The notes: generated by a model not told the origin, from the letters alone. A stretch of 64,000 nucleotides of DNA from Clostridiales bacterium (GCA_918262735.1 CAKJYJ010000005.1:211035-275034); one strand, 5' to 3'. Counted from the stretch's first letter, positions 40,104-61,755 are shown. Made by a program: numbers and translations.

Positions 40104-40565
40104 ATGACAAACATTTTAATTGTGTCTGATAGCCACGGCAGAAAAAACTTTTTGGAAGATTTAATAAATTCAAAGAACTACGATTACATATTCTATCTTG
40201 GCGATGGCGCAGATAGAGATATTGGAACAAACATTTACGACCCAAGGTTTATTTATGTTAAAGGAAATTGTGACAACTATTACTCTGACTTTCCTTTAAC
40301 CCAAACATTAAACATTGAGGGGTTAAAAATATTAATCACCCATGGTCATGAACAAAAGGTGAAATATGGTATTGAATATATGTTGAATTTTGCAAAATCT
40401 AAAGGCTACAAACTGGTATGCTTTGGGCATACACATAAACAGGTTTTTATGGAAAAAGATGGCATAGTATTCATCAACCCTGGAGCACTAAAAAATGGTG
40501 ATTATGCAGAACTGATGTTAGATAATAAAACAATTGATTGTAAATTATTAAATATGTTAAACTAA
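40104..40565 (+). CDS. YfcE/MJ0936-family metallophosphoesterase
   Basis: The motifs ILIVSDSHG, GDG, ITHGH and FGHTH occur in canonical order. Confidence 0.8.
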   Translation: MTNILIVSDSHGRKNFLEDLINSKNYDYIFYLGDGADRDIGTNIYDPRFIYVKGNCDNYYSDFPLTQTLNIEGLKILITHGHEQKVKYGIEYMLNFAKSKGYKLVCFGHTHKQVFMEKDGIVFINPGALKNGDYAELMLDNKTIDCKLLNMLN

Positions 40566-40657
40566 ACAAGAAAACAATCGCTTCGCTCTTCTTATTCTTG
40601 CGTGCCTAAACAAAAAAACGCATCACCAAATGCGTTTTTTATTTGTTAAATTGTTTT

Positions 40658-42175
40658 TTATTGCTTAACTATTTCATCATCAATGGTAACCGCTGGCTTT
40701 TTATTGTGGTTCTTCGCATCCTTGTTTGCCAACTCTTCCATTTGTTTTACAAACTCTTCCTGAATTACTGCTTGATACCTCTCGGTTGCTTTATCTGGAA
40801 GTTGTGTTGATTCAAAAATTGGGGTGTTATAATTCAATAAGTCGTCTGCGTGACTAAAATTACCTAACATTTGTTCTATCTCAATTAAACGATACATTTT
40901 TCTCTTATCAAACATTCCTTCAACAGCAACCGAAACGTTAGCTTGTTTATAAATTGAAGTAACATGTTCGTTAAATTCTTCATATGTCATATTCTTTATA
41001 TAGTTCATTGCTGCTTTATAATCAATAAATGGAATATTGTTCATATAGTCACTAAAATTTGAACGTGCAGAACATGTTCTAAACTTTTGAAGTTTTGCAT
41101 TCTCCCTGTCGGTTATTGCTTTTTTAACTGTATAAAATGCGTCTTCAGGAATTCCATTAATCCCAAAGTCATAGATTAAATCACACAATGTCCTTATTGT
41201 TTTTCTCATATTCGCGGCATTGGTGGTTGCTGAAAAATTCTTAAACTTTCCATTTCCACAATCACAATTTTCTAAATCATATTCATAAACGAGATTATTT
41301 TTAACTCTTAGAGCGTCATATAAAAATCCACCAATATCGTTCATTAAATACTCTTCAACAATATCGTATGCAAATTCTTTGTCTGGATTTTCAGCGTAAT
41401 CATCACGTTCTCTTAAAAGAAGATTTATTTTAACATTATATGATGGGGTGCATGGAAAAACACACATCTTGTTTTCCCTAACAAATTCACGAGGTTCACT
41501 TGGCTCAATAATGTATTTTGAACTCTTTGCTCTAGGTAACCTGCTAAACACTTTTTCCTCAAATATTTTTATAATATCCTCAGCTGGCTTGTTAGATGTT
41601 ACAGATATAACAAGGTTATCTGTGTTAAAGTATCTTCTTTTATACTCTGCCAAAATTTCTGGGGTTATTAGACTTAAAGATTTTGGTGTTCCCAATATAT
41701 CGGCAGAACTCATACTATTTCCGCCCTCTCTTAATGTTGAGATGAGTAACTCTAGGGCTGAAATATCATCATCTTCGTCTTTATACATATTTATTTCTTG
41801 CTTAACAATTTCTTTTTCAAGTTTAATCTGTTCTGGTGTGTACTTTCTTGTTATAACCGAGTTCATAAGGTTATCTAGTGCTGGCTCAAGATTGTTTTCT
41901 GTTGCACTAAAATCTAACGAAATAAAGTTTTTGCCCGTGAATGCATTTTGATTAAGCGAATATTTTAGTACATTATTTAATGTTCTTGTTGTTCCTGCTG
42001 GCTTGTGATCTCTAAACAAAAGATGCTCAAGTAAATGGCTTAAACCCTTATATTTTCCATCAAGTTGTGCCCCTGAACGAAAGCTTAAAATAACTGAGCT
42101 TCCATTAAAAGCTGTATGTTTTTGATAAATTAATGTTGCTCCGTTATCTAGTTTATATACCTCTTGCTTTGCCAT
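40658..42175 (-). CDS. M16-family (pitrilysin/insulinase-like) zinc peptidase
   Basis: The HxxEH motif (LSHLLEHLLF) lies near the N-terminus of a ~505-aa protein. The ATG at 42175 is preceded by GGAGG; the tracked ORF extends to 42268. Confidence 0.75.
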   Translation of the reverse strand: MAKQEVYKLDNGATLIYQKHTAFNGSSVILSFRSGAQLDGKYKGLSHLLEHLLFRDHKPAGTTRTLNNVLKYSLNQNAFTGKNFISLDFSATENNLEPALDNLMNSVITRKYTPEQIKLEKEIVKQEINMYKDEDDDISALELLISTLREGGNSMSSADILGTPKSLSLITPEILAEYKRRYFNTDNLVISVTSNKPAEDIIKIFEEKVFSRLPRAKSSKYIIEPSEPREFVRENKMCVFPCTPSYNVKINLLLRERDDYAENPDKEFAYDIVEEYLMNDIGGFLYDALRVKNNLVYEYDLENCDCGNGKFKNFSATTNAANMRKTIRTLCDLIYDFGINGIPEDAFYTVKKAITDRENAKLQKFRTCSARSNFSDYMNNIPFIDYKAAMNYIKNMTYEEFNEHVTSIYKQANVSVAVEGMFDKRKMYRLIEIEQMLGNFSHADDLLNYNTPIFESTQLPDKATERYQAVIQEEFVKQMEELANKDAKNHNKKPAVTIDDEIVKQ

Positions 42176-42356
42176 AGTTCCTCCACCGTGTAATTTATTA
42201 TAACATACACTATTTAATATTTCAATATGTTTTTTCTTATCATTTTTGTCATTCAAAAAATGACCCACCCATGCAAAATGGTAAATTTTTAATAAATAAT
42301 GTACATTTTTTTAATTATGGTGTATAATTAAAGAAAAAATTTATTAATAACATTTT

Positions 42357-42396
42357 GCGCCCATAGTGAAATGGATATCACACGAGTCTTCGGAAC
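42357..42396 (+). pseudogene. tRNA-Arg(UCG)-like 5' half (fragment 1), ending at the anticodon loop
   Basis: GCGCCCATAGTGAAATGGATATCAC matches the intact tRNA at 42647 in 24/25 nt. Similarity is lost right after GTCTTCGGAAC, and no T arm or acceptor 3' strand follows. A TGTATAAT extended -10 lies about 30 nt upstream. Confidence 0.7.
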
Positions 42397-42561
42397 GTCG
42401 TCGCAATTATCAGTTTTTCTGCATTATTTGCTCCGCAAAATGCAATGTCGCCTTCAATTGCTCCTCTCCCCATTCGGTTCTTCAAACCTCTGGGGACCCC
42501 AAATCAACTCACCAATGGTTCCTCTTGCTTAAATATGTTTTTTTAATTTTTATATTTTTTT

Positions 42562-42630
42562 GCGCTCATGGTGTAACGGATAGCACAATGGTCTTCGGAA
42601 CAGATTTCGTGGGTTCGATTATCCCATTAA
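42562..42630 (+). pseudogene. tRNA-Arg(UCG)-like fragment 2: good 5' half, degenerate 3' part without an acceptor strand
   Basis: GCGCTCA TG GTGT AACGGATA GCAC A ATGGT CTTCGGA, followed by ACAGATTTCGTGGGTTCGATTATCCCATT. That following stretch cannot pair with the 5' half. Confidence 0.7.
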
Positions 42631-42646
42631 AAAAATAATCACATTT

Positions 42647-42721
42647 GCGCCCATAGTGAAGTGGATATCACAATAGTCTTCGGAACTATTATGCCGAGTT
42701 CGAGTCTTGGTGGGCGCACCA
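42647..42721 (+). tRNA. tRNA-Arg (anticodon UCG), intact
   Basis: GCGCCCA TA GTGA AGTGGATA TCAC A ATAGT CTTCGGA ACTAT TATG CCGAG TTCGAGT CTTGG TGGGCGC A CCA. All four stems pair. Two hairpin terminators follow. Confidence 0.85.
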
Positions 42722-42969
42722 AAAAAGCCCGATTTTACGGGCATTTCAGCGATTTTTATTAGTCGCTGATTTTTTATTGTCAAACAAAAAAATCGAACTC
42801 CCAAATAAAGACAATACTCATTTAGGGGTTCGATTTTAATACTTAAAAAGTATACATATTTTTGCTCAAAAAGTGCTAATTTCTACGAATTTTCTACGAA
42901 TTTATAGCGAATTTTTGCAAACAACTTTGTTTTTGATGTATTTTATCGTATCGTATCATATAGTGCTTT

Positions 42970-44319
42970 TTACATTTCAAAATCTCTTTGTCTGCGTTTT
43001 CTTCGTTCTTCTTGCTTTTGTTTTTCTTCAAGTATTTGCTCTTGTTCCTTTCTTTTTTCAGCAAGTTTTCGTTCAAGTTCAGCAATTTCGTCATCAAGAT
43101 TTTCTTCTTTAATCATTTCTGGCTCTTCAATTTCTTCTTCGTTTTCTTCTGTTGGTTGTTCTATTGTTTTTGTAAGAGCGTTGCTAATTGCATTTGCACT
43201 TTCATATTTTGCCGTGTAGTCCAAATGTGAATAGACATCGGCTGTTGTGTTAAAGTTTGAATGGCCTAACCATTCCTGAATATTTTTCATTGGGACTTTA
43301 CTTGCAACAAGCAAACTAGCACAAGAATGTCTTAAATCGTGAAACCTAATGTGTTTTAAGTGGTTTCTTTGTAATATTTTTCTAAACCTGTTTGTAACAA
43401 GATTTGGGTCATAAATATCACCAATATCATCAACAAACACATAATCAACATATTTGTAGTTATAACTTTTTCCAAACACTTCTTTGTTATGTTCAATCTC
43501 TTGCTTTCTTTCAAGTAGCATTTGTTCTATTTCTGGGAGCAAAGGTAATGTTCTATTACTTGCTTGTGTTTTCAAAGTGTCGGACAAATAATAAACTCCA
43601 TTTACATTTAAGACCTTGTGTTTAATTGTTATCATTTTATTTTCAAAATCTATTGCGTCCCATTTTAAGCCAATTAGTTCACTTCGCCTAAATCCATAAA
43701 AAGCGGCAACACGAACTATTAGTTTCAGAGATGTTTTGTCCGTAACCTTAAATAGTTCTTCTAATTCGTCTTTGTTATAAAAGTTCATTCTTGTTTTTTC
43801 TCTTTTTATATGTGGCATAAACTCGTATGGATTTTTTGCAATTAAATCATCTCGGTATGCCTTGCGAAGTGCTGGCGAAAGCAGAGTAGCGTGATGTTTG
43901 ACTGTAATGTTTTTATTCCCTCTTTCTTTTCTGAGATAGTCATAGAAATCCAAAATGTGATGATAAGTTACATCTTTGAGTTTTAATTTGTCACCAAAGA
44001 ATTTTTTTATAACTCTCACTTGATTACTGTATGAGTAAAAAACTGCCGGCGAAAGTTCATCTTTCTTGCTTTCCACATATTGCTCAATATAATCCACAAA
44101 TAAAATATCATTTTTAACTTGTGGCTCGGGTGTCTGTTCATAAACTTCTTCTGGATTAAATTTGTCTAATTGTTCTTTGAGAAATTTTTGTGCTTCCTTT
44201 TTATTACCTCTCTCTTTAAGTCCTGTTGTAATCCATTTTTGCTTATATTTGCCATAATTATCTTTGTAGTTTATGACAGCATAATATATGCCATTTTTTA
44301 CTTTCAAACTTCCTGTCAT
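42970..44319 (-). CDS. Tyrosine-type site-specific integrase with a charged C-terminal tail
   Basis: 449 aa with an N-terminal arm-binding-like domain, a SAM-like core-binding domain and the catalytic residues in order: FRRSEL (Arg I), HDLRHS (His-x-x-Arg), GHSNFNTTADVYSHL (His/Tyr). It lies adjacent to the tRNA. Confidence 0.9.
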   Translation of the reverse strand: MTGSLKVKNGIYYAVINYKDNYGKYKQKWITTGLKERGNKKEAQKFLKEQLDKFNPEEVYEQTPEPQVKNDILFVDYIEQYVESKKDELSPAVFYSYSNQVRVIKKFFGDKLKLKDVTYHHILDFYDYLRKERGNKNITVKHHATLLSPALRKAYRDDLIAKNPYEFMPHIKREKTRMNFYNKDELEELFKVTDKTSLKLIVRVAAFYGFRRSELIGLKWDAIDFENKMITIKHKVLNVNGVYYLSDTLKTQASNRTLPLLPEIEQMLLERKQEIEHNKEVFGKSYNYKYVDYVFVDDIGDIYDPNLVTNRFRKILQRNHLKHIRFHDLRHSCASLLVASKVPMKNIQEWLGHSNFNTTADVYSHLDYTAKYESANAISNALTKTIEQPTEENEEEIEEPEMIKEENLDDEIAELERKLAEKRKEQEQILEEKQKQEERRKRRQRDFEM

Positions 44320-44525
44320 AGTTGTTCACCTCCAATTAAATATGCGATGACATTGTATTTTGGGATTTTATAGTCTTTGCCAATTTTGACTGATTTGATT
44401 GTTCCATCTCGCAAAAGTTCATAGGTCTTTGTTCGTTTGATTCCGAGCATTTGGCCTAATTGTTCAACTCCAACGCAATCTGGGAAATCTTTAAACATAA
44501 TTTCATTTAGTTCTTTAATGCCCAT
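44316..44525 (-). CDS. Excisionase-family helix-turn-helix protein
   Basis: VEQLGQMLGIKRTKTYELLRDGTIKSVKIGKDYKIPKYNV is a typical HTH_17/Xis pattern. It overlaps the integrase start by 4 nt. The ATG at 44525 follows GAGGTG. Confidence 0.7.
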   Translation of the reverse strand: MGIKELNEIMFKDFPDCVGVEQLGQMLGIKRTKTYELLRDGTIKSVKIGKDYKIPKYNVIAYLIGGEQL

Positions 44526-44533
44526 ATTGCACC

Positions 44534-45220
44534 TCACATTTCCATATCTGACTTTCGGCTTTGATTTGCAATATCAAGCAAGTCATCAAGGTTGGTTAAA
44601 AATCTTTTATTTCGTTTAAGGTCAATATTGGCATAAATATTTTGTATTCTCTTAAATTTCAAATCAAATCTAGTCCAAGCACGGTAATAATCGTAATCGT
44701 GAGCTTTTTGACATATAAATTTGTCAAGACAGCAAGCAAGTCCAGAAAGTAAGATTTGTGGCAAATTATTATCTCTTCCAACATATCTCAAATTTCTGCT
44801 TAGAGTATTGTAATTTAATCTTGTTCCATTGTCTTTAAGAGCAATATATTCTTGATAATTGAAATTATAGTTTTCTTTCAAAATGCTGTTTTTAAGTTGT
44901 TTTTTTTTAAGTTCTAAAAGTAGTTTTTTAATGCTTGGGAGTAGTGGAAATTCTCTCATTAAATTTGTTTTTCTTTCACAATCCCAACCATAATAAAATT
45001 TTGAATTTCGTCCTTGTTTGATAGGATAAATTTTTATTGTGTTATTCTCAAAATCTATATCTTCCCATTTGATATTTACAAGTTCCATTCTTGATATTTC
45101 ATAGGCCATAATCAGTTTGAAATAACACTCGTATTTGTTTCCTTTGATAGCTTTCAAAAATGCTTTCGTTTGTTTTAAGTCAAAGGTATTTTCGTCATTG
45201 ATTTCATTTAGATAAATCAT
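44534..45220 (-). CDS. Tyrosine-recombinase-like protein lacking most catalytic residues
   Basis: It aligns by eye to the catalytic domain of the neighbouring integrase. ISRMELVNIKWEDIDFENNTIKI matches FRRSELIGLKWDAIDFENKMITI, and FPLLPSIKKLL matches LPLLPEIEQML. However, HDLRHS is replaced by LSGLAC, and no VYSH-type Tyr context is present. The ATG at 45220 follows GAGGAAGGAA. Confidence 0.6.
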   Translation of the reverse strand: MIYLNEINDENTFDLKQTKAFLKAIKGNKYECYFKLIMAYEISRMELVNIKWEDIDFENNTIKIYPIKQGRNSKFYYGWDCERKTNLMREFPLLPSIKKLLLELKKKQLKNSILKENYNFNYQEYIALKDNGTRLNYNTLSRNLRYVGRDNNLPQILLSGLACCLDKFICQKAHDYDYYRAWTRFDLKFKRIQNIYANIDLKRNKRFLTNLDDLLDIANQSRKSDMEM

Positions 45221-45264
45221 AGTATTCCTTCCTCGTTTTAAGATTTTATCTAAACACATTTAAC

Positions 45265-45300
45265 CATAGTTCTTTAACGCATTGAGCGAAAGACTTTCGG
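45265..45300 (-). repeat. 36-nt conserved leader motif, copy 1 (contains the palindrome CGAAAG-A-CTTTCG)
   Basis: catagttctttaacgcattgagcgaaagactttcgg matches 47177-47212 in 34/36 nt. It lies just upstream of the degenerate-integrase gene. Confidence 0.8.
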
Positions 45301-45518
45301 TTTTAACGCCTTTTGTGACGGATTGATTTCTATCAATCAAATAGCAAACCTTGTTTGCAAATCGGCAGTCTGGGTATCCCAGCAAGCCGATAGACAGACG
45401 AGAAAACTGCAAATTTAGGGGCGTTTCTCAAAAAGTGTTGATTTTTCAATGCTTTTTAGAGAAAAAACCACTTGCTGTTTCTCGCTTATCCTGTTTTCTA
45501 TAATCTCTTTCTAAATAC

Positions 45519-46715
45519 CTACATTTCTGCTTCAATATATCCTTCTTCCACAAGAGTTTTATATCTCACTTCATCAAGCTTTTTTAGGTAGTCATCAAAT
45601 GCTTTCATCGTTTCTTTATCAAACTCAACAGACGCTTTCAAACATTCATTAAGTTGCCTAAATAGACTTTTCTTTTGAGCATATTTTTGGCTTTTGTAAC
45701 TTGCATTAAGTTTTAATCTTCTAATGTCCATTGCCTTAATTCTAACCGCATAATGTAACACTTCATTTCCAAGTCGGCGATATATATCTTTCATATATTT
45801 TCGCTCAAATGTAAATGGTTGTTTGCAGTGATTTCTTTTGCAGTAATTTGCAAACAATTCATCTTTGTATTTGGCTTGCTCAATGAACTCGTTGTATGCA
45901 GATGTTGCCACACTTGACTTGTTTATTAAGTAAGTTGTTATGTCGTCAATTTCGGCTCTGAAAGGTGCAATGTCATTGCTTGAATAATAACATTTTTCAA
46001 TGTCATAAATCTTGCTTCCAAGACTTAACAACTTGTTGTTTATCACAAATCCAGATTTTGCTCTTAATTCGTCCACAATTGCTTGTTTGAGTGTTTGTCT
46101 ATTCTTTATCTCAATTGCTTTGAAATCGGTCGCAGAAAGCTCCAAATTGGCTCTAAATTCTTGCATTGCCACATTGGATAATTTGCCAATAGAAAATTGC
46201 TTGCATTTTTTGTTTGGTCTAATTCTTAAAGCTTTCTTTTCAAAAAAGCACAAATGAATATGTCTATTGTCCGTGTTCTCGTGCAGTCCTGCAAACCATT
46301 CTATGTTTTCGGGATTTAGTCCACATCTCTTAAAAAACTTTGGTAATTCGGTTTTCATAAGTTCGTATGCTTGCTCATAGCAGTTAACCCAAGTTTTACC
46401 AAACACTTCTTCAAAGGATATAACACAATCCCAAATGATTGATTTTGTCTTTCGCAGTTTATTTCTTAATTCCTTTTTGTAGTCATCTGAAATAAGTCCA
46501 TCTTGATTGAATATTCCACGAGATTTTTCTCTTGATTGCATATATGCCACATAGTCCAAACTCTTGAATTCGTTTATTCCTGAAATTATGTAGTTCATAT
46601 AATCTTTTGCTTTGTTAGAAGAATAATATTTTCGTTTTTGTTGCATTGCCTTGCTTTTGTAATTGGGAGAATAATACTTTACAAAGAAATTAACTTTCGG
46701 TGTCGCCATAAACAA
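45519..46715 (-). CDS. Relaxase / mobilization nuclease (MobA/VirD2-type histidine triad)
   Basis: 398 aa. GLHENTDNRHIHLCF matches the HxDxxxxHxH motif III of MOB relaxases (compare RP4 TraI HTDTDNLHIH). Tyr-rich N-terminus. Confidence 0.7.
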   Translation of the reverse strand: MFMATPKVNFFVKYYSPNYKSKAMQQKRKYYSSNKAKDYMNYIISGINEFKSLDYVAYMQSREKSRGIFNQDGLISDDYKKELRNKLRKTKSIIWDCVISFEEVFGKTWVNCYEQAYELMKTELPKFFKRCGLNPENIEWFAGLHENTDNRHIHLCFFEKKALRIRPNKKCKQFSIGKLSNVAMQEFRANLELSATDFKAIEIKNRQTLKQAIVDELRAKSGFVINNKLLSLGSKIYDIEKCYYSSNDIAPFRAEIDDITTYLINKSSVATSAYNEFIEQAKYKDELFANYCKRNHCKQPFTFERKYMKDIYRRLGNEVLHYAVRIKAMDIRRLKLNASYKSQKYAQKKSLFRQLNECLKASVEFDKETMKAFDDYLKKLDEVRYKTLVEEGYIEAEM

Positions 46716-47133
46716 GTGTCCTCATTTTTTGGTGTAAGTCATAGTGTGAGAATAGTCCATCTAAAATATCTGCATTGTTCACTTCAACATTGCCATTGCT
46801 GTTATACACAACATTAGCAATAAAATTGCAAAGATATTCAATGACCAAGTGGTTTATTTCAAACTCTTTTTCATACACACCAATCAATCCTTCCAATCGT
46901 TCCAATTTCTTTGTGTGGTTTTTTAACACTTCGGTTATCTCACTCAAATTTTTAGAATGGTCAACTTCGGTGTCTCCCAACATCTTTTTTGCACCAATCA
47001 CAAGACAAGCTCTTTGAAAGTCTGTTTTGTTATCAAAGCCAGATTTACATCTTGAATATACTTTATCTAACAAATCTTTGTCTTCCTGATTGTAAATTCG
47101 TAAAGTGAATTGGTCTTTTAATTGTTTTGTCAT
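46690..47133 (-). CDS. Putative relaxosome accessory protein (ribbon-helix-helix-like N-terminus)
   Basis: 147 aa, overlapping the relaxase start by 26 nt. The N-terminal QFTLRIYNQEDKDLLDKV looks like a strand-helix RHH motif. The assignment is contextual. Confidence 0.45.
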   Translation of the reverse strand: MTKQLKDQFTLRIYNQEDKDLLDKVYSRCKSGFDNKTDFQRACLVIGAKKMLGDTEVDHSKNLSEITEVLKNHTKKLERLEGLIGVYEKEFEINHLVIEYLCNFIANVVYNSNGNVEVNNADILDGLFSHYDLHQKMRTLVYGDTES

Positions 47134-47176
47134 AGTTCCTCCATATATAATTCATCTTTACTAAATTTGGTCTTGT

Positions 47177-47212
47177 CATAGTTCTTTTACGCATCGAGCG
47201 AAAGACTTTCGG
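47177..47212 (-). repeat. 36-nt conserved leader motif, copy 2 (candidate oriT/operator)
   Basis: catagttcttttacgcatcgagcgaaagactttcgg, about 45 nt upstream of the accessory/relaxase operon. Confidence 0.8.
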
Positions 47213-47376
47213 CACTATCGCTTCCAAACAAACGAAATGGTTGTATTGCCATTTACAATATTTTCATCACCTCCTTTTAAGTTTTTATTTTCTTCCGACA
47301 TCTTTTTACATTTCGCACCTCCTTATAACTTGATTTTATAACTACCGCGTGGACAACGTCTGTCCATGCGGAAATT

Positions 47377-47640
47377 ATTTTCAAAAAAATTTTAACAATG
47401 TCGTTCGGAAACACCTTTGCCGGTCGGTTAAACTTTTTTTGATTTTTCAAAAGTATTTTACAATTGTCGCATTATCACAGGTTGATAACACGAGAAAAGT
47501 TTTTTAACTTTTTCAAAGAGATTTTAGCAGTGCATATTGCCATACATCTTAGCAATACTAAAAACATTTTATATTTGTCGGTGGTTCAACGGTTGAACCA
47601 TCGGTCAAACTTTTTTAACTTTTTCAAAAAAAATTTTATA
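47377..47640. repeat. Iteron-like array: 3.5 copies of a ~30-nt A/T-tract module, each preceded by a different palindrome
   Basis: The module aaac-tttttt-(g/a)a(t/c)-ttttcaaa-(a/g)(a/g)(t/a)-atttta occurs at about 47430-47460, 47497-47526 and 47608-47638, with a partial copy at 47379-47395. Palindromes TTATCACAGGTTGATAA (47471-47487) and GGTTCAACGGTTGAACC (47583-47599) precede units 2 and 3; unit 1 has only a weaker one. TGTCG delimiters sit at 47398, 47465 and 47576. Confidence 0.7.
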
Positions 47641-48125
47641 AAATAAATTGTTTCAATGTTTGATACAATTTAGATATTTTTCTAACAAGAAAAAAGCAAG
47701 TAATAACTACTTGCTTAATCGCCCCATCAAATAGGGGAAAACCAATATAATATATAATATCTAACAAGAAAAAATATAATATACATTTATATATAATATA
47801 TAGGGGAATGCACTTCGGCTTAGAGAACAAACACACTCATTTTTGTTTTGTTAGATAACTATAATACTTTTCAATCTTGTCTTGTTAGAAAGCCGCCCTC
47901 ATTTATATAGTAAAATCGTATAGCACCGAATTTGCCAAAACCCTTGTATTTTCGGGGGGAAAGAGAGAACCACAAAATAAAAAAATCTAAAAAAAATTTA
48001 TGTCCCTCTACTAATATAAGGACACCTAGTTGCAATTTGTCCGTGTGTTTTTGCCACTTTTTGAAAACTTTTTTGTAAAATCTTGTCTTTTTGTGTTGAA
48101 ATCCGTTTTTCTCCATTTCAAAACA

Positions 48126-48156
48126 TAAAAAATGACCTAGCGAGTAGCTAAGTCAT
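48126..48156 (-). terminator. Intrinsic terminator of the giant surface-protein gene
   Basis: The minus strand reads ATGACTTAGCTACTCGCTAGGTCATTTTTTAT, about 20 nt after the stop at 48175. Confidence 0.65.
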
Positions 48157-48174
48157 TTTGTTTTTTTTATTGTG

Positions 48175-51100
48175 TTAATCTTTCTTTCCAGTTAAGTTTT
48201 TGAATTTGTAATCAATAGCTTCAATTACTTTGTTTGCATCTTCTTCTGTCTTGACCTTAATAACACTACTTGCTGTTTCTTTTGCACCTGTGCCAGTAAC
48301 TTCTTTGAAGTCCTTATCATTTGCAAAGAACTCTGCGAATATTTCGCCTTTTTTGAGTTTGAAACGAACAATCTTTTCTTTCTTATAAGAAACTGTGTAA
48401 TAATCTTGTGCCTCGCTTGTCTTAACATTTTCAAGTGTCATTGCGTGTGCTTTAATTTTATCATAGAGTTTTCTATCTTCTTTTGAAAGGAGTGCATATT
48501 GCTCGTTTAATGTTTTCTTTTCACTAAATACAACAGCTTCTTTTTCAGCTTCTGTATTTGCAACTGCTATCACATTTTTCTTTCTAAATACAAACCAGTA
48601 AACACAGAATGCACCGCCAGCAAGAGCAAGAACTCCAACAATTATTCCAATTATTGCACCAATTCCAAGACCACCATTTGATGGATTTTCTGGATTGCTA
48701 GGATCTTCTGGGTTTACAACAGGTGGTTGTTCAGGTGATTCGTAAGCAATTACATAGGTTGAGAAGTGTGTTGTTTCAAATGATACTTTACCATCTGTAT
48801 AAGTGGCATTCATATCTTCTTTGTCATCGCCATTTACATAGTAAACTTTAACTTCATTGCCTTCTGGAATTTGAATATCAATAGGAACAACAACTTTTGC
48901 TTTACCATTTGCAAATGTCACTCCATTAAGTGAAAGAACAAGTACCATTTGAGCATTTGGAATGTTATATCCAGCAAGATTTTCTGTTGATGTCGTTACT
49001 TTGAATTTTACATCATGACCTGCAATATCTTTAACAGCATCTTTATCAAATATAATAGTTGCCTTATCGGTTTCAAATGTTACAGAGCCATCATTTTCGC
49101 TTGCAAGGTCAAATATGTATCTTACATCTTTGCCTTCATCGTCTGTTAAATCTTCAAGTCCTTCTGTAACCTTATAATCTTTATCATCGCCATTGATTGA
49201 AGGCTCTGGAGTATAGTTTTCAATATGAACATGTCCACACACTGAACATTCTTTCCATTTCTTTCCAACTTGGTCTGCATAGGTTACATAATGCCAATCG
49301 CCATAGGTATGTTCAGCTTTGTCAAGTTCTTCTGTGCAACCATCAAAAGCATTGCAAATATGCCAATGATGTGTATCATTGCTTTCCCAAGCAGTGCCAA
49401 CATAAGCATGTTCATGTTTTTCAATTACATGACCGTCTTTAATTTTTGTATCACATTCTGTACAATATAAATCGCCTGAATATCCATTTGCATCTACAGT
49501 TACAGCAACAGCATCTCTAAGTTCTGTGTGAGCATGGTTGTTAGGATCTAATGCAAGTCTCAATTGATTTGCAGTTTTTTCATGAGCTAATGTATATTCA
49601 TCAACTGTTTTCAAAATATAGTGGGCATCAACAACTATCTTCAAAGTTGCATTAGTTCCATATGCTGTACTATGTTCTTGGATGTAAGCCCAATCCCATA
49701 AATATAAACCAGGATTTAATTGATCTTCATATTTGTAATTATTATCAAGGTCATATTCAGCTTCAAGTATTGCGAGCAAATCATCTGTTAGAGCATATTC
49801 GCAATCTTCTTCTTCAATATCATGAATAAATCTAAGACCAATAGTATCTAATGTTTTAATGTAAGCGTAAATATCTACATCGAATAATTTACCACAATGT
49901 GAGCACATATAATGTGCTGAATGTCCATGAGTTGAACAAGTTGATTCTGTTGCACCAACATAAACAAGTTCATGGTCAGCATAATTGTATAATGTTTCTT
50001 CTACCGTACCACAAATAGTGCAAGTTCTTGTCATCCTACCTTGATGATTACATGTTGACAAATCTTCTACATAATTCCATTGATGTTCACATGGAATTTC
50101 GTATTCACAATCATCACATTTTCCATATCCGTGTTCATCATTATGATGGAAACCAATAGAACTTTCATCTATCGCACCACATACCGCACAAACATAGCAG
50201 TGAACATGCTTACCATCGATTGTTCTTGGAACATAATCTGACCAACTGTGTAAATATCTAACATCATCAATTGTTATTTCTTCGTAATAACTATCAACTC
50301 CAATGCCATGACGAGTAAACCATTTACCACAATCTTCACATTCATAATGTCTGTCAATTGAATATTCGCCGTGAGAACAATCTCCTTCAACTTCTTCAAC
50401 CAATCTTAAACGATGAGTTTGTTCTATTGTAAGATTGCCTGGATTAACTACTTCCACATATTTTTTAGCACCACAATCTTCACAAATATATTCTTCATAA
50501 TTGTATCCAATACACCAATGTGCAGTATCAGTAGGTTCTGAGCCCCAGTTATGATCTGTATCCGTTGTTCCACAACTTGGATAGAATGTTATGTCTAATC
50601 CAATGCTTGTTCCGTTGAGACCAACAAGAAATTTCTCTACAAGTGGCTCTTTGCTAAATGCATTTGTTACTGTTTGATCAAAGAAGTTTGGAAAACCAAA
50701 TGTCAAATCATCTGCAAAGCGATAACCTTCTTCTGGATATACATAAACTCTGATTGTCTTAGGTGTTTTTGCCTCCAAAACAATTTCTGTCAATCTTTGA
50801 TCTAAACTTGGATCTGGATTTGTTAAGAATTTAACATTGTCTGCCTCTAGTCCAAAGTTATTTGTTCCAATATTTAATTTATTGTTACCTTGAACTGCAA
50901 TTTCAAGTGGATTTAATACTATTGATGCCTGTGTGTGAGCATAAAGAGTTATACCATTTTGCATAGGAATAATCTTTTGTCCTGGATAAAATCTTGTATT
51001 TGCAGGGTAGGTTACATTTTCAATTTCGCTTGTATAATCTTGATGGATTGTATAATAGTCAATATGTAATCCTTCAAGGAGTTCACTTGGAATATTTACA

Positions 51101-53805
51101 TCTCCAAGAATAGAATAGTAAGGATTTGTGTCGTAATCATAGTTTATTTCATCTTCGTAAGTATTGTCATTGATAACATAATTAACTTGTTTATATTGTA
51201 TTGGACTAAATACAGGAATGGCTGTTACAATTGCCCTTTCTCTAAATGTATCGCCCAAAGCATAAGTATTATTTCCGATTTTCCAACCAGTTTGAACATA
51301 TCCTGGTTTTGAATAAGTCTTGCCTTTTAACACAAGACCTTCTGTGTAATCATAGTATGATGTATAATCTATTGCAGATTGAGCAGTCTCTCTATAATTT
51401 ACAGTTCTAAGTTTTTCAGCAAAATAGAATTTTACAGTAACATTTTCATTTGGCATCACAAACATGTCGTGTATATCTTCAATGTGTTCGCCACTTGCTT
51501 TTTCTAAATCAACTCTTAACAATCTTCCATAAATGCCTGGTGTAGCTTGAATACAAACAATATCGCCTGCATTAAAAGATGTTTTTGTAGTACCGTTTGT
51601 ATCAGTAAGTTTCGTTTTGCCAATTATTTGACTATCCGAATAATAATTAGAAAGGTTATAGCTAGTTCTTTGTGCTGCTTTTGTAGTATCAATCCCAGTA
51701 AAATGAATTTCTCTTGATATTTGAGAAACAATTTCATCATCTAATATAATTTGAGCACATTCTCTAACTGAATAATATCCTTGAGTGTCAACTAAAATAC
51801 TATAAATTCCATTTTCATCTTTTAACACTTCTTCATATTTATTAGATCCTGGCTTCTTTACAAATAATTGTTGACCAGGTTGTACATGCTGATCGTTATC
51901 TGCAACAAGTCCTCTAAACTTTGTGTTAAATTTGAATGTTTGTGTTGAACCAACATTTACATTTCCCAAATTCCCATTTGCTGGATATTCTTCTGGTGTA
52001 ATATCTTGGAAATAAATCATTTCAGATGCTGCTTTAACTTCCAAAGATAACTGATTTGATTTCGTAGAAATAAATTTATCTCCACATTTTTCTATAATAG
52101 TGAGGTCTACTTTGTAATTTCCAACATCCCATTTCTCTTGGGGATTCTTAACCAAGTAATTTATTGGCTTTTCTGCATTTGGATCATAAGCGAATGTTTT
52201 GTATTTATAAGGAGTAAGATTATTGCCAACAACTTTACTTATAGTAAATGTCACTGTTACACTGTAATCATCTTGATTAAATCCTTCACCAACATATGCT
52301 TTACCAAAATCTGATGAATAAAATTTGATTTGTTCACTCATACACAATTCATGCATATTGTCTAATTTAACAATAAAATTCTCATATTGATAAATTGATT
52401 TGTTGGCATTCGATGACATAAAGTGAGATATACCCTCACTAAGTGTTCTTGTTTGTTTTGGAGTGTAATTATAATAACCTTCAAAAGTATCACCATAATC
52501 ACTTCCGCCAAAGTTTTCTACTTTAGTCAAAGTAGCAGTTATTTTATCTGCATCTTGAGTTTCGCTCTCTGCAGCTACACCAAAAGAAGACAAATTCAAA
52601 AAATTACCGAGGTTTGTGTTATTATAATATTGATAATCTTTTGAAGTTAAAACAGCTTGCAGTGTCATATTCTCTGGTTTCAATATATGAATGGTTCCAT
52701 TTTCATCTAAAAATGATGCATTTTTTTCAATTTTAGAATAGAAATATCCTCCGTGGATTCTAACTCTTGATGGTAGAATGTTCAAATTATATTCTACAGC
52801 TTCTTCCATTTTTACAAGCATTGGATTTAATTGCATAATACCTAATGCTGGAGCAAATCCATAACCATAGAACTCCCCACCTTCAATATTTAAGTAACCA
52901 TTATTGTAAGCAACACCGCCTGTTTGCCCTTTAGTGGCAAAATTACCAGTATAACCCAAATTGTTTATTCCATGACCAATAAGTTTACCACCAGTAATAT
53001 TTGCTGTTCCACCATCAACCAATACAGCACAACCTGAATTATATACAGTTACCGTTCTACGAGAAGTGTGATCTGGGTGATAACTATATTCTTGCAATAA
53101 TTGATCAATTTGATCTCTTTCTCCAGAGTCATGAACATCGCTACTATAAACTTGTTTAGATCTGCCAGCAATAAGTGTTCCACCATGAACATTAAGAACA
53201 CCATTTTCACCAACCCAAACGACATCTCTATGTACATTAGATAGAGATTTTGTCATATCGCTGAACATGCAGTCGTAATGAATTTCACCCTTATTATCAG
53301 GAGCATCAACTATTGTTAGTTCTGCATCTTTTACTTCAATTAAACATCTAATATAAAATGACCAATAAGCAGATCCCAAAACTGAATTCTCTTGGTATCC
53401 CACATATTCATGTTCATTCTTAGCACTGTTCCATCTTATTGCAGACTTATCTGATACATAAATAGAGTGTCCATTCAAGTGTAATATTTTGTTGTCTTTT
53501 ACGGAAATTTTATTTATCGCTCTATAGCTACCAGTCGTTTCTCTTTCAGATTCATATTCAAAATCTTGTGTAACAACAATAAATTTATTTCCATTTGAAG
53601 TTAAGGCGTTCCTAAACTGTTCAAAATTTGAAACTTCAACCCTTGACATATCTTGTGATTGATAATTTATCACATTGTTAGAATAGGCATAAACACTCTC
53701 GGTTTTTCTTAAACCACCAATACCAAATCCAAGTGCAAGTCCAAGCACCATAACGAATGCAAGTATTCCACTCAAAAACAAATTTCTTGATTTAGATTTC
53801 ATCAT
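48175..53805 (-). CDS. Giant (1876 aa) type-I membrane surface protein: beta-helix-like region, Ig/Flg_new-like modules, Cys/His-rich repeat array, C-terminal TM helix and ~135-aa cytoplasmic tail
   Basis: N-terminal signal anchor, followed by GG-containing beta-helix-like repeats (GGTLIAGRS, GGTANITGGKLIGHG, LNIEGGEFYGYG). KPGYVQTGWKIGNNTYALGDTF is Flg_new-like. Residues ~1075-1560 hold more than 10 H..W/H...C..CG units. HFSTYVIAY is followed by a Pro-rich stalk and the TM helix GIGAIIGIIVGVLALAGGAFCVYWFVF. Confidence 0.85.
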   Translation of the reverse strand: MMKSKSRNLFLSGILAFVMVLGLALGFGIGGLRKTESVYAYSNNVINYQSQDMSRVEVSNFEQFRNALTSNGNKFIVVTQDFEYESERETTGSYRAINKISVKDNKILHLNGHSIYVSDKSAIRWNSAKNEHEYVGYQENSVLGSAYWSFYIRCLIEVKDAELTIVDAPDNKGEIHYDCMFSDMTKSLSNVHRDVVWVGENGVLNVHGGTLIAGRSKQVYSSDVHDSGERDQIDQLLQEYSYHPDHTSRRTVTVYNSGCAVLVDGGTANITGGKLIGHGINNLGYTGNFATKGQTGGVAYNNGYLNIEGGEFYGYGFAPALGIMQLNPMLVKMEEAVEYNLNILPSRVRIHGGYFYSKIEKNASFLDENGTIHILKPENMTLQAVLTSKDYQYYNNTNLGNFLNLSSFGVAAESETQDADKITATLTKVENFGGSDYGDTFEGYYNYTPKQTRTLSEGISHFMSSNANKSIYQYENFIVKLDNMHELCMSEQIKFYSSDFGKAYVGEGFNQDDYSVTVTFTISKVVGNNLTPYKYKTFAYDPNAEKPINYLVKNPQEKWDVGNYKVDLTIIEKCGDKFISTKSNQLSLEVKAASEMIYFQDITPEEYPANGNLGNVNVGSTQTFKFNTKFRGLVADNDQHVQPGQQLFVKKPGSNKYEEVLKDENGIYSILVDTQGYYSVRECAQIILDDEIVSQISREIHFTGIDTTKAAQRTSYNLSNYYSDSQIIGKTKLTDTNGTTKTSFNAGDIVCIQATPGIYGRLLRVDLEKASGEHIEDIHDMFVMPNENVTVKFYFAEKLRTVNYRETAQSAIDYTSYYDYTEGLVLKGKTYSKPGYVQTGWKIGNNTYALGDTFRERAIVTAIPVFSPIQYKQVNYVINDNTYEDEINYDYDTNPYYSILGDVNIPSELLEGLHIDYYTIHQDYTSEIENVTYPANTRFYPGQKIIPMQNGITLYAHTQASIVLNPLEIAVQGNNKLNIGTNNFGLEADNVKFLTNPDPSLDQRLTEIVLEAKTPKTIRVYVYPEEGYRFADDLTFGFPNFFDQTVTNAFSKEPLVEKFLVGLNGTSIGLDITFYPSCGTTDTDHNWGSEPTDTAHWCIGYNYEEYICEDCGAKKYVEVVNPGNLTIEQTHRLRLVEEVEGDCSHGEYSIDRHYECEDCGKWFTRHGIGVDSYYEEITIDDVRYLHSWSDYVPRTIDGKHVHCYVCAVCGAIDESSIGFHHNDEHGYGKCDDCEYEIPCEHQWNYVEDLSTCNHQGRMTRTCTICGTVEETLYNYADHELVYVGATESTCSTHGHSAHYMCSHCGKLFDVDIYAYIKTLDTIGLRFIHDIEEEDCEYALTDDLLAILEAEYDLDNNYKYEDQLNPGLYLWDWAYIQEHSTAYGTNATLKIVVDAHYILKTVDEYTLAHEKTANQLRLALDPNNHAHTELRDAVAVTVDANGYSGDLYCTECDTKIKDGHVIEKHEHAYVGTAWESNDTHHWHICNAFDGCTEELDKAEHTYGDWHYVTYADQVGKKWKECSVCGHVHIENYTPEPSINGDDKDYKVTEGLEDLTDDEGKDVRYIFDLASENDGSVTFETDKATIIFDKDAVKDIAGHDVKFKVTTSTENLAGYNIPNAQMVLVLSLNGVTFANGKAKVVVPIDIQIPEGNEVKVYYVNGDDKEDMNATYTDGKVSFETTHFSTYVIAYESPEQPPVVNPEDPSNPENPSNGGLGIGAIIGIIVGVLALAGGAFCVYWFVFRKKNVIAVANTEAEKEAVVFSEKKTLNEQYALLSKEDRKLYDKIKAHAMTLENVKTSEAQDYYTVSYKKEKIVRFKLKKGEIFAEFFANDKDFKEVTGTGAKETASSVIKVKTEEDANKVIEAIDYKFKNLTGKKD

Positions 53806-53891
53806 AAATCCTCCAACAAAAATTAACTTGTATAATCAATACAACATAAGTATAACATAAAAAGTTTTATTTTGTATCAAAATATAAAACT

Positions 53892-54410
53892 TTAATTGAA
53901 AAAATTATAAATTATTTTTTTCTTCTGATTTGCATATTTGTAGGCAAGTGCTGTGCCAGACTTTGGTTGATATGCAAACAAATCTCTTCTTGACCATTTT
54001 CTTTGTGGTGGGGTGTAGTTTTCATCATAGTAGAACAAACAAAAATCGCTATCATCAATCATTGCTTGATTTCTTACAACGTGAGATATTTTTCCAGCCC
54101 CCTTACATCTTTCTGGGAAATAGGTTTCCTCATAGAACCCAAGCAAGTATTTTTTGTAGTTTTCATCAATAAGCTCATACTGTGAACGAATATAAACTCT
54201 TTTTAAGTCTGTATATTTTTCTTTGAGTTTTGATACTATATCATAGCAGAAATCGTCAAACTGACTTCTGCTACCAAATAAAAACACTTTCACATTTTCA
54301 TTTACAATCAAATTCTCAATGTAATCATAAAGTCTCTGTTTAAGTTCAATAGTTATCTCGATTTTTCTATGTCCAATAAAACAACAATTTTTTACACTAT
54401 GTTTTTGCAT
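53892..54410 (-). CDS. SLOG-superfamily (DUF1273/YpsA-like) protein
   Basis: N-terminal NCCFIGHRKI and FLFGSRSQFDDFC resemble the DUF1273 pattern (..TGHR.. / G.G.D). The ATG at 54410 was chosen; the tracked ORF starts at 54428. Confidence 0.55.
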   Translation of the reverse strand: MQKHSVKNCCFIGHRKIEITIELKQRLYDYIENLIVNENVKVFLFGSRSQFDDFCYDIVSKLKEKYTDLKRVYIRSQYELIDENYKKYLLGFYEETYFPERCKGAGKISHVVRNQAMIDDSDFCLFYYDENYTPPQRKWSRRDLFAYQPKSGTALAYKYANQKKKIIYNFFN

Positions 54411-54462
54411 AGTTATATAATAGCACACTTTTTATAAAAATACTATGTTTTTGCATAGTTAT
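54396..54462. promoter_or_regulatory. Two identical 21-nt operator-like sites in the SLOG/XRE divergent intergenic region
   Basis: actatgtttttgcatagttat occurs at 54396-54416 and 54442-54462. Each contains the inverted repeat ACTATG-N6-CATAGT. Copy 1 covers the SLOG start codon. Confidence 0.7.
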
Positions 54463-54506
54463 TAAAAAACATAGCCAAATTAAAATATAAGTAAAGGAAT
54501 TTGGAT

Positions 54507-54749
54507 ATGAAAGTTAGTAAAGCAGTTGTTGAAAGATTAAGGGAAATAACAAACAATAAAAATTTATCACTCTATAAATTACAAAAGGATTCTGGTATGC
54601 CAGAGGGAACTTTTTTATCTTTAATCTATGGAGATAGAAAGGGTGTAAATCTGACAACATTATTGCAACTCATTCAAACATTGCAGATTTCTGCAAAAGA
54701 ATTTTTTGATAGTCCATTGTTTGATGAGAGCAATTTAGATATTGATTAA
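54507..54749 (+). CDS. XRE-family (Cro/CI-type) helix-turn-helix regulator
   Basis: NKNLSLYKLQKDSGMPEGTFLSLIYGDRKGVNLTTLLQLIQTLQISAKEFF is a typical HTH_3 pattern. The gene is divergent from the SLOG gene. Confidence 0.7.
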   Translation: MKVSKAVVERLREITNNKNLSLYKLQKDSGMPEGTFLSLIYGDRKGVNLTTLLQLIQTLQISAKEFFDSPLFDESNLDID

Positions 54750-54975
54750 ATCAAAAAATTTTACACTGTCACGAATTTTTGCATGAAAAATGCAAAGTTT
54801 TTGCAAATGTGCTGTTTTTGGCTTTCAATTTATTGTTAAGTGTTGTATAATATCATTTGTAAAAATAAAATTGCCTAAATGCTTGTAAAATCAAGCAATT
54901 CGGCACTTTTATATACGATAAAATATGATAAATATTTGTGCAAAAATGGTTAAAAACGACAGTTTCCTGCCACCC

Positions 54976-55019
54976 CTTCGGAACCATCAGTGAGGGTTCG
55001 AATCCTTCTGGGCGCACCA
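54976..55019 (+). pseudogene. Orphan 3' half of tRNA-Arg(UCG) (attR side)
   Basis: CTTCGGA ACCAT CAGT GAGGG TTCGAAT CCTTC TGGGCGC ACCA. No 5' half lies upstream. ACCAT and TGGGCGC pair with ATGGT and GCGCTCA of fragment 2 at 42562. Confidence 0.75.
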
Positions 55020-55249
55020 AACAAAATAAATCCAAACCAGTATTGGCGAGGATTTTTTTGTTTGTACTTTTCACTCTTATCTTTTCATTCTTCACTTTTC
55101 ACCATCTCGGATTTATTTTGAACGAAAGAATAAAAATGAAAAAATAAAAACAGTTGTGATTTGAATAAGTACAAAAAGCAAAAGACAATAAAATTGTGTT
55201 CCGCCGCACCATGAGTGATTGTTAAAGCGTAAAGTAACAAGGCAAATTA

Positions 55250-55263
55250 TTCTGGGCGCACCA
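55250..55263 (+). repeat. Second copy of the tRNA-Arg 3' end (TTCTGGGCGCACCA), followed by a second copy of the same terminator
   Basis: Identical to 55006-55019. The downstream hairpins at 55020-55059 and 55264-55303 are clearly homologous. Confidence 0.75.
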
Positions 55264-55425
55264 GATAAAACAAATCCATGCCAAAATTGGTGAGGATTTT
55301 TTTATGCATTAACCTTTTGTTTCTCAGCAGCTATCAAAAATCAATTAATTTTACACAAAATTAAGCAAAAAAAAATTGTTTTTAATAAAAAACCCAACCA
55401 AATTTCACTTTGATTGAGTATTTTT

Positions 55426-60708: not shown

Positions 60709-61755
60709 ATGAAAAAGAATGTTGCAATAATTGGCTATGGCGGACAGGGCGCCTGGCATGCCAACCAAATAATTAAAAGTGACGTAGTTGCTCTTTCGGG
60801 GGTTTATGATATTAAACCCGAGCGAATTGAACTGGCTAGAAGCAGAGGAATTTTTACATATCCTTCGGCTGAAGAACTTTTGTCGGACAAAAACGTTGAT
60901 ATCGTTGTTATAACAACTCCAAACGACTCTCACAAAGAACTATCAATAAAAGCTCTAAATGCCGGCAAAAATGTGATATGTGAAAAACCAGTTATGTTAA
61001 ACACGTCGGATTTAGCTGAAGTTATTAAAGTTTCCAACCAAACGGGTAAGCTTTTCACCGCACACCAAAACAGAAGATATGATGTTGATTTCCTTGCAAT
61101 TAAACAATTAATTCAAGAGGGAAAACTTGGCGATGTTGTAAGCGTGGAATCACGAGTTCATGGTTCAAGAGGCATACCTTCCGACTGGAGAGGAAAAAAA
61201 GAGTATGGTGGTGGTATGCTCTACGACTGGGGTGTCCATTTAATTGACCAAATAACTCAGCTCTTACCAAACGAAGAATTAAAAAAAGTGTTCTGCACCG
61301 CCCAACACACCACCAACTTTGAAGTGGATGATGGCTTTAAGTTAACGCTAATATACAAATCTGGCATCACCGCATTTGTTGAAGTTGGAACATTAAACTA
61401 TATTGCAATGCCTAGATTTTATCTTCAATGCAAACGCGGTTCGGCAAAAATAAACGATTGGAAACAAAATGCGGAAGTGGCTTATTGTAAATATTGGAAT
61501 GAAAAAGAAGTTTTGCCTGTTCAAACCGCAGCGGGTATAACAAAAACCATGGCACCAAGAGATGAAATAACGCTAGACACATATAACCTAGATATCCCAG
61601 TTTCTGACGTGCATGACTTTTATAGAAATTTTGTATTGGCAATAGACGGAAAGGAAAAACAATACGTTACACACGAACAATCAATGTTTGTTTTGAAAAT
61701 TATAGAAAAAGCATTTGAGTCTATTGAAAAATGTCAGGCCGTGGATTTTGACTAG
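60709..61755 (+). CDS. Gfo/Idh/MocA-family NAD(P)-dependent oxidoreductase
   Basis: VAIIGYGGQGAWHA Rossmann motif and the conserved ICEKPV motif. 348 aa. Confidence 0.8.
   Translation: MKKNVAIIGYGGQGAWHANQIIKSDVVALSGVYDIKPERIELARSRGIFTYPSAEELLSDKNVDIVVITTPNDSHKELSIKALNAGKNVICEKPVMLNTSDLAEVIKVSNQTGKLFTAHQNRRYDVDFLAIKQLIQEGKLGDVVSVESRVHGSRGIPSDWRGKKEYGGGMLYDWGVHLIDQITQLLPNEELKKVFCTAQHTTNFEVDDGFKLTLIYKSGITAFVEVGTLNYIAMPRFYLQCKRGSAKINDWKQNAEVAYCKYWNEKEVLPVQTAAGITKTMAPRDEITLDTYNLDIPVSDVHDFYRNFVLAIDGKEKQYVTHEQSMFVLKIIEKAFESIEKCQAVDFD

Follow-up and report, generated by a model that had tools for sequence, protein, structure and literature searches.

A relaxase-bearing integrative element that splits a tRNA-Arg(UCG) gene in a gut Clostridia lineage and carries a putative replacement tRNA

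What serves in place of a tRNA gene that a mobile element has cut in two? The question was raised by a 64-kb window (the whole stretch analyzed; 64,000 nt, GCA_918262735.1, CAKJYJ010000005.1:211035-275034) from a Clostridiales bacterium, in which two halves of a tRNA-Arg(UCG) gene flank the genes of an integrative mobilizable element (IME) and a further, complete tRNA-Arg(UCG) gene lies just inside the left boundary. Comparison with uninterrupted copies of the locus and with related elements made it very probable that the 12.4-kb element entered the anticodon loop via a 9-bp core, left its target unrepaired, and carries a replacement tRNA-Arg(UCG).

The split gene and the tRNA carried by the element

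Three tRNA genes were called in the window by ARAGORN, one of them being the intact tRNA-Arg(tcg) at 42647-42721 (+). The 9-mer CTTCGGAAC occurred in four copies (42388, 42593, 42678, and 54976), each of which represented an anticodon loop plus 2 nt in a tRNA-like context. A sequence-only reading of the window had quoted two half-gene sequences at 42562-42601 and 54976-55019 and proposed that they were one split tRNA gene. Both sequences were present, and joining 42562-42592 to 54976-55019 gave a 75-nt sequence called as tRNA-Arg(tcg), in which the anticodon stem pairs perfectly and the acceptor stem has one G-U pair. The host 5' half, denominated h1 (42562-42592, +), comprised the acceptor 5' strand, the D arm, and the anticodon-stem 5' strand, and was followed by the attL copy of the core CTTCGGAAC (42593-42601, +), while the displaced host 3' half, r1 (54976-55019, +), began with the attR copy (54976-54984, +).

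The locus was flanked by genes for an M16 peptidase (40658-42268, -) and an aspartyl-tRNA synthetase (AspRS; 55426-57159, -). Exact-sequence look-ups of the window AspRS, integrase, and SLOG proteins gave no match, and the homologues P0001, P0081, and P0201 served as search entries in place of exact matches. A scan of genome contigs with the AspRS recovered relatives at ≤84% identity only and with different synteny, and the closest named genome was a Candidatus Onthoplasma metagenome-assembled genome (MAG) of the Christensenellales (AspRS identity 84%), from which the host is placed by sequence similarity in an uncultured, Christensenellales-like gut Clostridia lineage. Contig L127 (14.7 kb) was found via a 98% identical homologue of the window M16 peptidase. 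On this contig the AspRS and M16 peptidase genes were 625 nt apart with one intact tRNA-Arg(tcg) between them, which was identical to the predicted 75-nt join of h1 and r1 and scored 62.2 bits against the Rfam tRNA model (gathering score 29 bits). Both flanks were 98.1-98.2% identical to those of the window (BLAST), with homology stopping at 42601 and restarting at 54976. The uninterrupted gene was also carried by contigs L133 and L137, such that the empty-site comparison proposed by the sequence-only reading yielded three contigs of the same species, from three different samples, that hold the intact gene.

The empty sites delimited the element to 42602-54984, i.e., 12,383 bp with one core copy counted, in line with the insertion of roughly 12.4 kb first estimated. 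The attB site reads CACAATGGT-CTTCGGAAC-CATCAGTG, attL reads ...ATGGT-CTTCGGAAC-AGATTTCG, and attR reads CTGCCACCC-CTTCGGAAC-CATCAGTG; in all three, mismatches border the 9-bp core on both sides. The crossover was therefore placed inside CTTCGGAAC, in the anticodon loop as originally suggested. A second possible core, TGGGCGCACCAAA, which had led the sequence-only reading to consider the crossover undecidable, was excluded by L127 because 42602-42721 was wholly absent from the empty sites, and the third copy of the related repeat TGGGCGCACCA was found to belong to a separate 247-bp insertion described below.

The absence of 42602-42721 from the empty-site contigs includes the intact tRNA gene, which thus came in with the element. 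This complete element-borne tRNA-Arg(UCG), t2 (42647-42721, +; ARAGORN, Rfam 57.7 bits), starts 45 nt inside the left junction in the orientation of the split gene and was identical at 75 of 75 positions in the related loci L081 and L152 despite different host flanks. Between core and t2 lies an element-borne stub (42602-42646, +) resembling a decayed tRNA 3' half, with a T-arm-like hairpin, TGGG TTCGATTAT CCCA, at 42610-42626 followed by an A-run and no acceptor 3' strand; it was kept in L081, L089, L150, and L152. The attL hybrid of h1 and stub reached only 18.9 Rfam bits over model positions 7-64, and neither the attL nor the attR junction was called as a tRNA by ARAGORN. The element-borne 3' segment that regenerates the target at the junction of classical tRNA-restoring islands was not found. 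As the element supplies only a decayed stub without an acceptor strand, the host gene stays split into two halves that are both predicted to be dead, and judged by its sequence and origin the intact tRNA belongs to the element and would replace the split gene. The stub probably descends from the working 3' half of an ancestral attP, an origin that corresponds to one evolutionary route discussed for phages (PMC10865867), and different stubs may come from different tRNAs. The sequence-only reading had overlooked the element origin of the intact tRNA and the dead left junction, as well as the family-wide layout and the older orphan half (h0) treated in the following sections.

Related copies and the element family

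Near-identical copies of these elements were found in different tRNA-Arg genes. In L152, the integrase was 100% identical to that of the window and only 2 differences were found in 1,822 nt from the core inwards. Left of its core was another tRNA-Arg 5' half (GCGTCTGTAGCTCAGCTGGATAGAGCACGGGT) that starts GCGTCTGTAGCTCAGCTGG... and is unrelated to the window orphan, preceded by a flank unrelated to that of the window. The left-junction core of L152 (1820-1828, -) reads CTTCGAAAC with a host A retained at core position 6, which indicates that the integrase tolerated a core mismatch and that the exchange occurred right of that position. A sister element whose copies share an identical integrase (P0232) was recovered on six contigs with at least 99.8% identity over 3.4 kb, in at least four host contexts and next to three very different 5' halves. 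Breakpoint mapping of six pairs of related elements displayed unrelated upstream flanks except for L085/L086, which represent the same locus in two related hosts (flanks 66% identical). Across the six mapped pairs the orphan 5' halves were 69-91% identical, as tRNAs would be, and identity rose to 87-100% from the first base past the anticodon loop. The comparisons of L152 and of the P0232 element indicate that the element has moved recently between different tRNA-Arg genes.

A departure from this pattern was seen in L140 (11634-11638), which compared to L141-L149 differed at four of the five bases that directly follow the core; there it reads CAGGT, which matches the 3' half of an L105-type tRNA, and the crossover or a repair tract may sometimes reach T-arm identity. 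In L149 (6725-8710), the copy of the P0232 element adjoins a coupling-protein gene of a type IV secretion system (T4SS; T4SS-DNA_transf/TraG-D_C) and may have integrated into a tRNA-Arg gene of a conjugative element.

The window integrase belongs to a clade of 6,927 proteins at E ≤ 1e-60. About 25 related loci shared one layout: an orphan 5' half, a stub or spacer, an intact tRNA with the same anticodon, and the integrase. The family targets were five, namely Arg-UCG, Arg-ACG, Ser-CGA, Ser-UGA, and Leu-CAA. The layout was kept with integrases at 42-50% identity, in tRNA-Ser(cga) (L093/L094), tRNA-Ser(tga) (L096), and tRNA-Leu(caa) (L095 and L102). Spacers between core and tRNA were 30-200 nt, and the carried tRNA always agreed with the orphan in anticodon and orientation. 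Both junctions were present in two loci only, the window and L100/L103. The latter is a second complete case, in which orphan halves approximately 4 kb apart rebuild a tRNA-Arg(ACG) and an intact tRNA-Arg(acg) of the element's own lies between them. Hypothetical hybrids of host 5' and element 3' sequences had 1 to 5 non-pairing acceptor or anticodon-stem positions in six of nine loci, and every carried tRNA was fully paired in both stems, one of them with a single G-U. On the basis of these alignments, the combination of a split tRNA and a carried tRNA defines the whole element family.

The carried tRNA was at times less conserved than its surroundings. Between the window and L089, identity was 91% in the stub and 92% in the downstream region compared to 83% in the tRNA, and between L082 and L084 the stub was 96% identical compared to 68% for the tRNA; from such alignments the tRNA seems to be a cassette exchanged between related elements. 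Within the 10 kb fetched, no right junction was found for the elements of P0232, L085/L086, L088, and L092. The sequence CTTCGGA at L088:7867 was considered as a right junction and rejected, as its context was not tRNA-like. In the Ca. Onthoplasma MAG contig L001 (13889-13932, -, and 13620-13860), an orphan tRNA-Arg 3' half forms the right junction of a related element, with ACGATAAAATATGG-type repeats in front of the half and tandem repeats of about 45 nt plus a masked N run behind it.

Gene content and neighboring features

Family searches in Pfam, NCBIfam, and PHROGs covered 10 open reading frames (ORFs) in 42970-54428, and all element genes were encoded on the minus strand. The gene nearest the left junction codes for a 449-aa tyrosine integrase (42970-44319, -; Pfam Phage_integrase 1.6e-26 and Phage_int_SAM_5 2.6e-15, PHROG 1 at 9.8e-73) whose RHR-Y motif region is legible in the translation as FRRSEL, HDLRH, and DVYSH. 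It is followed by an excisionase-family helix-turn-helix (HTH) protein of 73 aa from a GTG start (44316-44537, -; Pfam HTH_17 2e-8, TIGR01764 "excise" 35.9 bits at a cut-off of 28.8), with an alternative ATG at 44525. The integrase-like paralogue int2 (241 aa; 44534-45259, -) gave a partial Phage_integrase match over profile positions 5-122 of 172, with the box I arginine present and the HxxR and Tyr motifs absent. The conservation of int2, at 58-74% identity and in the same position between the excisionase and relaxase genes of at least nine related elements (L081, L083-L088, L090, and L092), makes a functional accessory protein more probable than a pseudogene.

A 398-aa MobL/MOBP-type relaxase (45519-46715, -) was identified by Pfam MobL (76.9 bits, cut-off 28.5) and PDB 9qq7 "Relaxase" (2.7e-7), and its score of 81.6 bits against NCBIfam MobP2 was under the cut-off of 200. 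The relaxase predicted in the sequence-only reading was thereby confirmed and assigned to a family, but its motif is the three-histidine HENTDNRHIH and not literally HxDxxxxHxH. Upstream of and overlapping the relaxase gene, a 147-aa protein (46690-47133, -) had no family match in Pfam, NCBIfam, or PHROGs and is a candidate relaxosome accessory; in L088 and L090, too, a homologue adjoins the relaxase gene. Upstream of this operon, at 47380-47640, are three related repeats of about 40 nt (TTTTGAAAAAGTTAAAAAAGTTTGACCGA...; direct repeats D2 and D12, inverted repeats I1 and I4). A palindrome or near-palindrome comes after each of these repeats, which are a candidate origin of transfer (oriT) or operators.

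The remaining genes included a predicted surface protein of 1,876 aa regarded as cargo (48175-53805, -), with a signal-like segment at the N-terminus, a transmembrane segment plus tail at the C-terminus, a weak match to a pectate-lyase-like adhesive domain, and a 69-aa match to the IgA protease 9qa6; no homologue was found in the related loci compared. A 178-aa SLOG/YpsA-like protein (53892-54428, -; Pfam YpsA 28.0 bits, cut-off 27.7) had weak homologues in L001 and L090, and YpsA-like genes also occurred in the P0232 element. Among the 10 ORFs, coupling protein, VirB4, and other T4SS families had no match, and neither did capsid, terminase, portal, tail, lysis, or repressor/immunity genes in PHROGs or Pfam. 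The relaxase, int2, excisionase, and integrase module was conserved across the family. The IME gene set without a T4SS that had first been read from the sequence was borne out by the Pfam and NCBIfam matches to integrase, excisionase-family HTH, and MobL relaxase, and with defined att sites, an empty site, and a relaxase of its own, the predicted gene content justifies the classification of the element as an IME.

Candidate regulatory and recombination sites were located around t2 and at both ends. Two hairpins follow t2 (42727-42769, +), a feature that recurred behind the carried tRNA of related loci; the second hairpin (42746-42769, then a T-run) is terminator-like on the tRNA strand. A consensus scan of this strand around the locus gave a single promoter-like site, at 42300-42328 upstream of h0, and none between core and t2. 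Putative arm-type sites on the integrase side (42881-42965) consisted of two exact tandem copies of TTCTACGAATTT (42881-42903) and of one TATCGTATCGTATCATAT at about 42945-42962, and similar pairs of (T/G)NNACGAATTT were found at the same place in L081, L082, L084-L089, L092, and L140-L152. A candidate far-end attP arm (54900-54975, +) contained ACGATAAAATATGATA at 54915-54930, its sole exact match in the window, and ACGATAAAATATGG repeats related to ACGATAAAATATGATA preceded the orphan 3' halves in L001 and L100. The arm-site motifs were not enriched over shuffled sequence window-wide, their support being their positional conservation.

Outside the present element, the window also held an older orphan tRNA-Arg(UCG) 5' half, h0 (42357-42396, +; repeat family D1), which ends in the core copy at 42388-42396 and is separated from the host tRNA by a 165-nt spacer (42397-42561, +). 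Both h0 and spacer were present in L127 (9476-9681, -), in L137, and in the related-species contig L131, whose peptidase was 71% identical; between L127 and L131 the orphan was 77% and the spacer approximately 85% identical, and the functional tRNA matched at 73 of 75 positions. Core-to-tRNA spacers of about 165-170 nt were seen in the elements L100, L093/L094, and L096, and the spacer at this locus probably remains from the left end of an older long-spacer element. Two orphan 5' halves in series also occurred in L088. It is likely, at moderate confidence, that the gene was replaced by an earlier element, which subsequently decayed and whose tRNA is now the resident gene. The h0 of the window and L127 has an element-type D arm (GTGAAATGGATATCAC), and the L131 version is nearly identical to the host tRNA 5' half. 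A nested older element, with the orphan at 42357 and the repeat at 55253 as its two halves, was considered and rejected since the insertion bearing the latter is absent from the empty sites and the orphan is present there.

That insertion is a miniature, gene-less segment of 247 bp at the tRNA 3' end (55020-55266, +), flanked by the 14-bp direct repeat TTCTGGGCGCACCA and lying outside the mobilizable element. It was missing in L127, L133, and L137, in which ACCA runs directly into the sequence found in the window from 55267 onward. Its modules recurred beside tRNA-Leu(aag) at 62449-62729, where, after an insert of about 130 nt, come a 20-bp stretch repeating the tRNA-Leu 3' end (62581-62600) and a segment with 85% identity to 55020-55150. 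From this arrangement, a second integrative family using tRNA 3' ends seems to be represented here by miniature remnants or non-autonomous members. Contigs L134 and L135 both break off precisely at TGGGCGCACCA, suggestive of strain heterogeneity at the site. Two further length differences separated the window from the 98%-identical L127: window 40565-40605 (40 nt) corresponded to 356 nt, and near the tRNA-Leu locus window 61754-62514 (760 nt) corresponded to 1,467 nt with Metallophos and SHOCT genes.

Alternative explanations, mechanism, and relation to known systems

The locus could also be read as a classical tRNA 3'-end integration, in which 42647-42721 would be the regenerated host gene, the core would be TGGGCGCACCA(AA), and the upstream 5' halves would be unrelated pseudogenes. 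The repetition of TGGGCGCACCA at 42711, 55009, and 55253 is consistent with such an event, as are the single tRNA of L104, with homology to L100 from the tRNA 3' end, and the rule that most tRNA islands and IMEs rebuild their target (PMC4383910, PMC5704250). Nevertheless, this explanation was refuted by L127, L133, L137, and L152 and is extremely improbable: the empty sites hold the join of h1 and r1 and lack 42602-42721, stub and tRNA accompany the element in its other hosts as well, and the copy at 55253 is accounted for by the independent 247-bp insertion. An insertion that is real but carries a dispensable passenger tRNA, with other tRNA-Arg species covering the codons and no dependence on the element, is somewhat less improbable but still unlikely. 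As far as the window shows, the split gene may or may not be essential, and phage Daredevil interrupts a tRNA gene with no cognate tRNA of its own (PMC10865867). Against this stands the agreement of carried and orphan anticodons in all of the approximately 25 loci and five targets, in the same orientation and within 30-200 nt of the core, together with the full pairing of carried tRNAs next to a decayed stub, which is hard to explain without selection on the tRNA. Finally, the element might be a decayed prophage or phage satellite, or now immobile, given that the best PHROG match of the integrase was the general phage integrase family, no oriT was identified, and no circular form was found. 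This was judged quite improbable in view of the lack of phage structural, packaging, lysis, or repressor matches in PHROGs and Pfam, the conservation of the MobL relaxase and its neighbor gene with the integrase module across the family, and the near-identical copies in different hosts that point to recent mobility. Viral contigs scanned with the integrase held nothing closer than 26% identity, and the core-plus-stub pattern had no match there.

Several observations weigh against the favored reading of an unrepaired insertion with a carried replacement. L104 and L105 have a single tRNA-Arg beside the integrase (1314-1390 and 5350-5425, respectively) and no orphan half in the 300-400 nt upstream examined, such that the layout is not universal in the integrase clade; with the homology of L104 to L100 beginning at the tRNA 3' end, the two may be classical tRNA-restoring clade members. 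The four host-like bases right after the core in L140 and the host A at core position 6 in L152 imply that the exchange point may vary or may be more complex than a fixed 9-bp core. The attP junction of an excised circle was in no contig examined, and the promoter and arm-site consensus matches were no better than in shuffled sequence. Dependence on the element tRNA is presumed, as another host tRNA able to read CGA/CGG may exist outside the 64 kb.

Under the favored reading, the element tyrosine integrase would have recombined the attP core CTTCGGAAC with the identical anticodon-loop sequence of the host tRNA-Arg(UCG) gene, and the loss of the split gene would be covered by the complete tRNA-Arg(UCG) on the element. 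The replacement would be read from the host tRNA promoter as a transcript starting upstream and trimmed by RNase P. A match would be needed only in the anticodon loop and no hybrid tRNA would have to fold, which would allow entry into tRNA-Arg genes with very different bodies. Integrase and excisionase would excise the element precisely and restore the host gene, and a co-resident conjugative system could transfer the excised circle via the relaxase. On decay in place, the element tRNA would stay as the working host gene with the orphan 5' half as a scar.

The closest precedent is tRNA-dependent lysogeny, described for actinobacteriophages such as Fionnbharth, LeBron, Cain, and Gaia (Guerrero-Bustamante and Hatfull, mBio 2024, PMC10865867) and suggested in the same study for the Lactobacillus johnsonii prophage Lj965, outside the actinobacteriophages. 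In these phages the core is short, no tRNA is rebuilt, and viable lysogens depend on a same-isotype tRNA carried by the phage (PMC10865867). The element described here shares the tyrosine integrase, an attB inside a tRNA gene, a short common core (9 bp compared to 8-17 bp), the absence of a functional tRNA at either junction, and a complete tRNA traveling with the element (t2, 57.7 bits), and in both systems close relatives that rebuild the tRNA may exist. It differs in its carrier, which is not a temperate phage but a relaxase-bearing element without phage genes, in the position of the replacement tRNA 30-200 nt from the core in the same orientation and behind a relic of the former 3' half, and in the conservation of this layout over a broad integrase clade and five tRNA targets. 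The tRNA requirement was established experimentally for the phages and is presumed here from sequence comparison.

Textbook accounts have elements in tRNA genes restore their target, as do the classical tRNA islands of the Islander concept (PMC4383910), and integration of IMEs "does not disrupt" the target according to a review (PMC5704250). The integrase beside attP, the excisionase, the tRNA-gene target, the displaced 3' fragment at the far end, and the relaxase without T4SS are shared with these elements. In contrast, element sequence restores the split gene in classical islands and IMEs, whereas a dead junction plus a whole extra gene were found here, and orphan 5' halves accumulate upstream rather than 3' fragments downstream.

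The attP identity segment of Haemophilus influenzae phage HP1 spans part of a tRNA operon, and HP1 regenerates all affected genes through this long identity, whereas in the present family the first 3' half is decayed and only the complete tRNA works. By analogy, an HP1-type attP covering more than one tRNA suggests how an attP with a 3' half plus the complete next tRNA could arise. Prochlorococcus tycheposons (bioRxiv 10.1101/2020.12.28.424599) likewise carry cargo and tRNA-specific tyrosine recombinases, have integrated serially at one tRNA, and come with scattered partial tRNAs; these partial tRNAs act as att sites beside a full-length host tRNA, and a split target with a carried replacement was not described in the text searched. 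The literature searched contained no description of the split-tRNA-plus-replacement strategy in an IME or integrative conjugative element. The strategy was previously described only for some bacteriophages, and what is new is its non-phage, relaxase-bearing carrier.

The arrangement of core, decayed 3' half, and complete tRNA in a row suggests an evolutionary route by which the strategy arose. It also carries a warning for annotation, as tools that expect an intact tRNA beside the 3' fragment will mis-delimit such islands. For the elements themselves, it offers a reason to carry a tRNA, which would free them from the host tRNA body and let them use the host promoter. A broader proposal is put forward tentatively, at slightly less than an even chance: splitting a tRNA gene and bringing a replacement would be the standard integration mode of a large clade of gut Clostridia IMEs, with expression from the host promoter and a wider host range, and host tRNA genes would be replaced over time, with chains of orphan halves as the record, such that the host tRNA-Arg(UCG) at this locus would itself derive from an earlier element. 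The prediction for the hosts of this family is an element-driven turnover of their tRNA genes.

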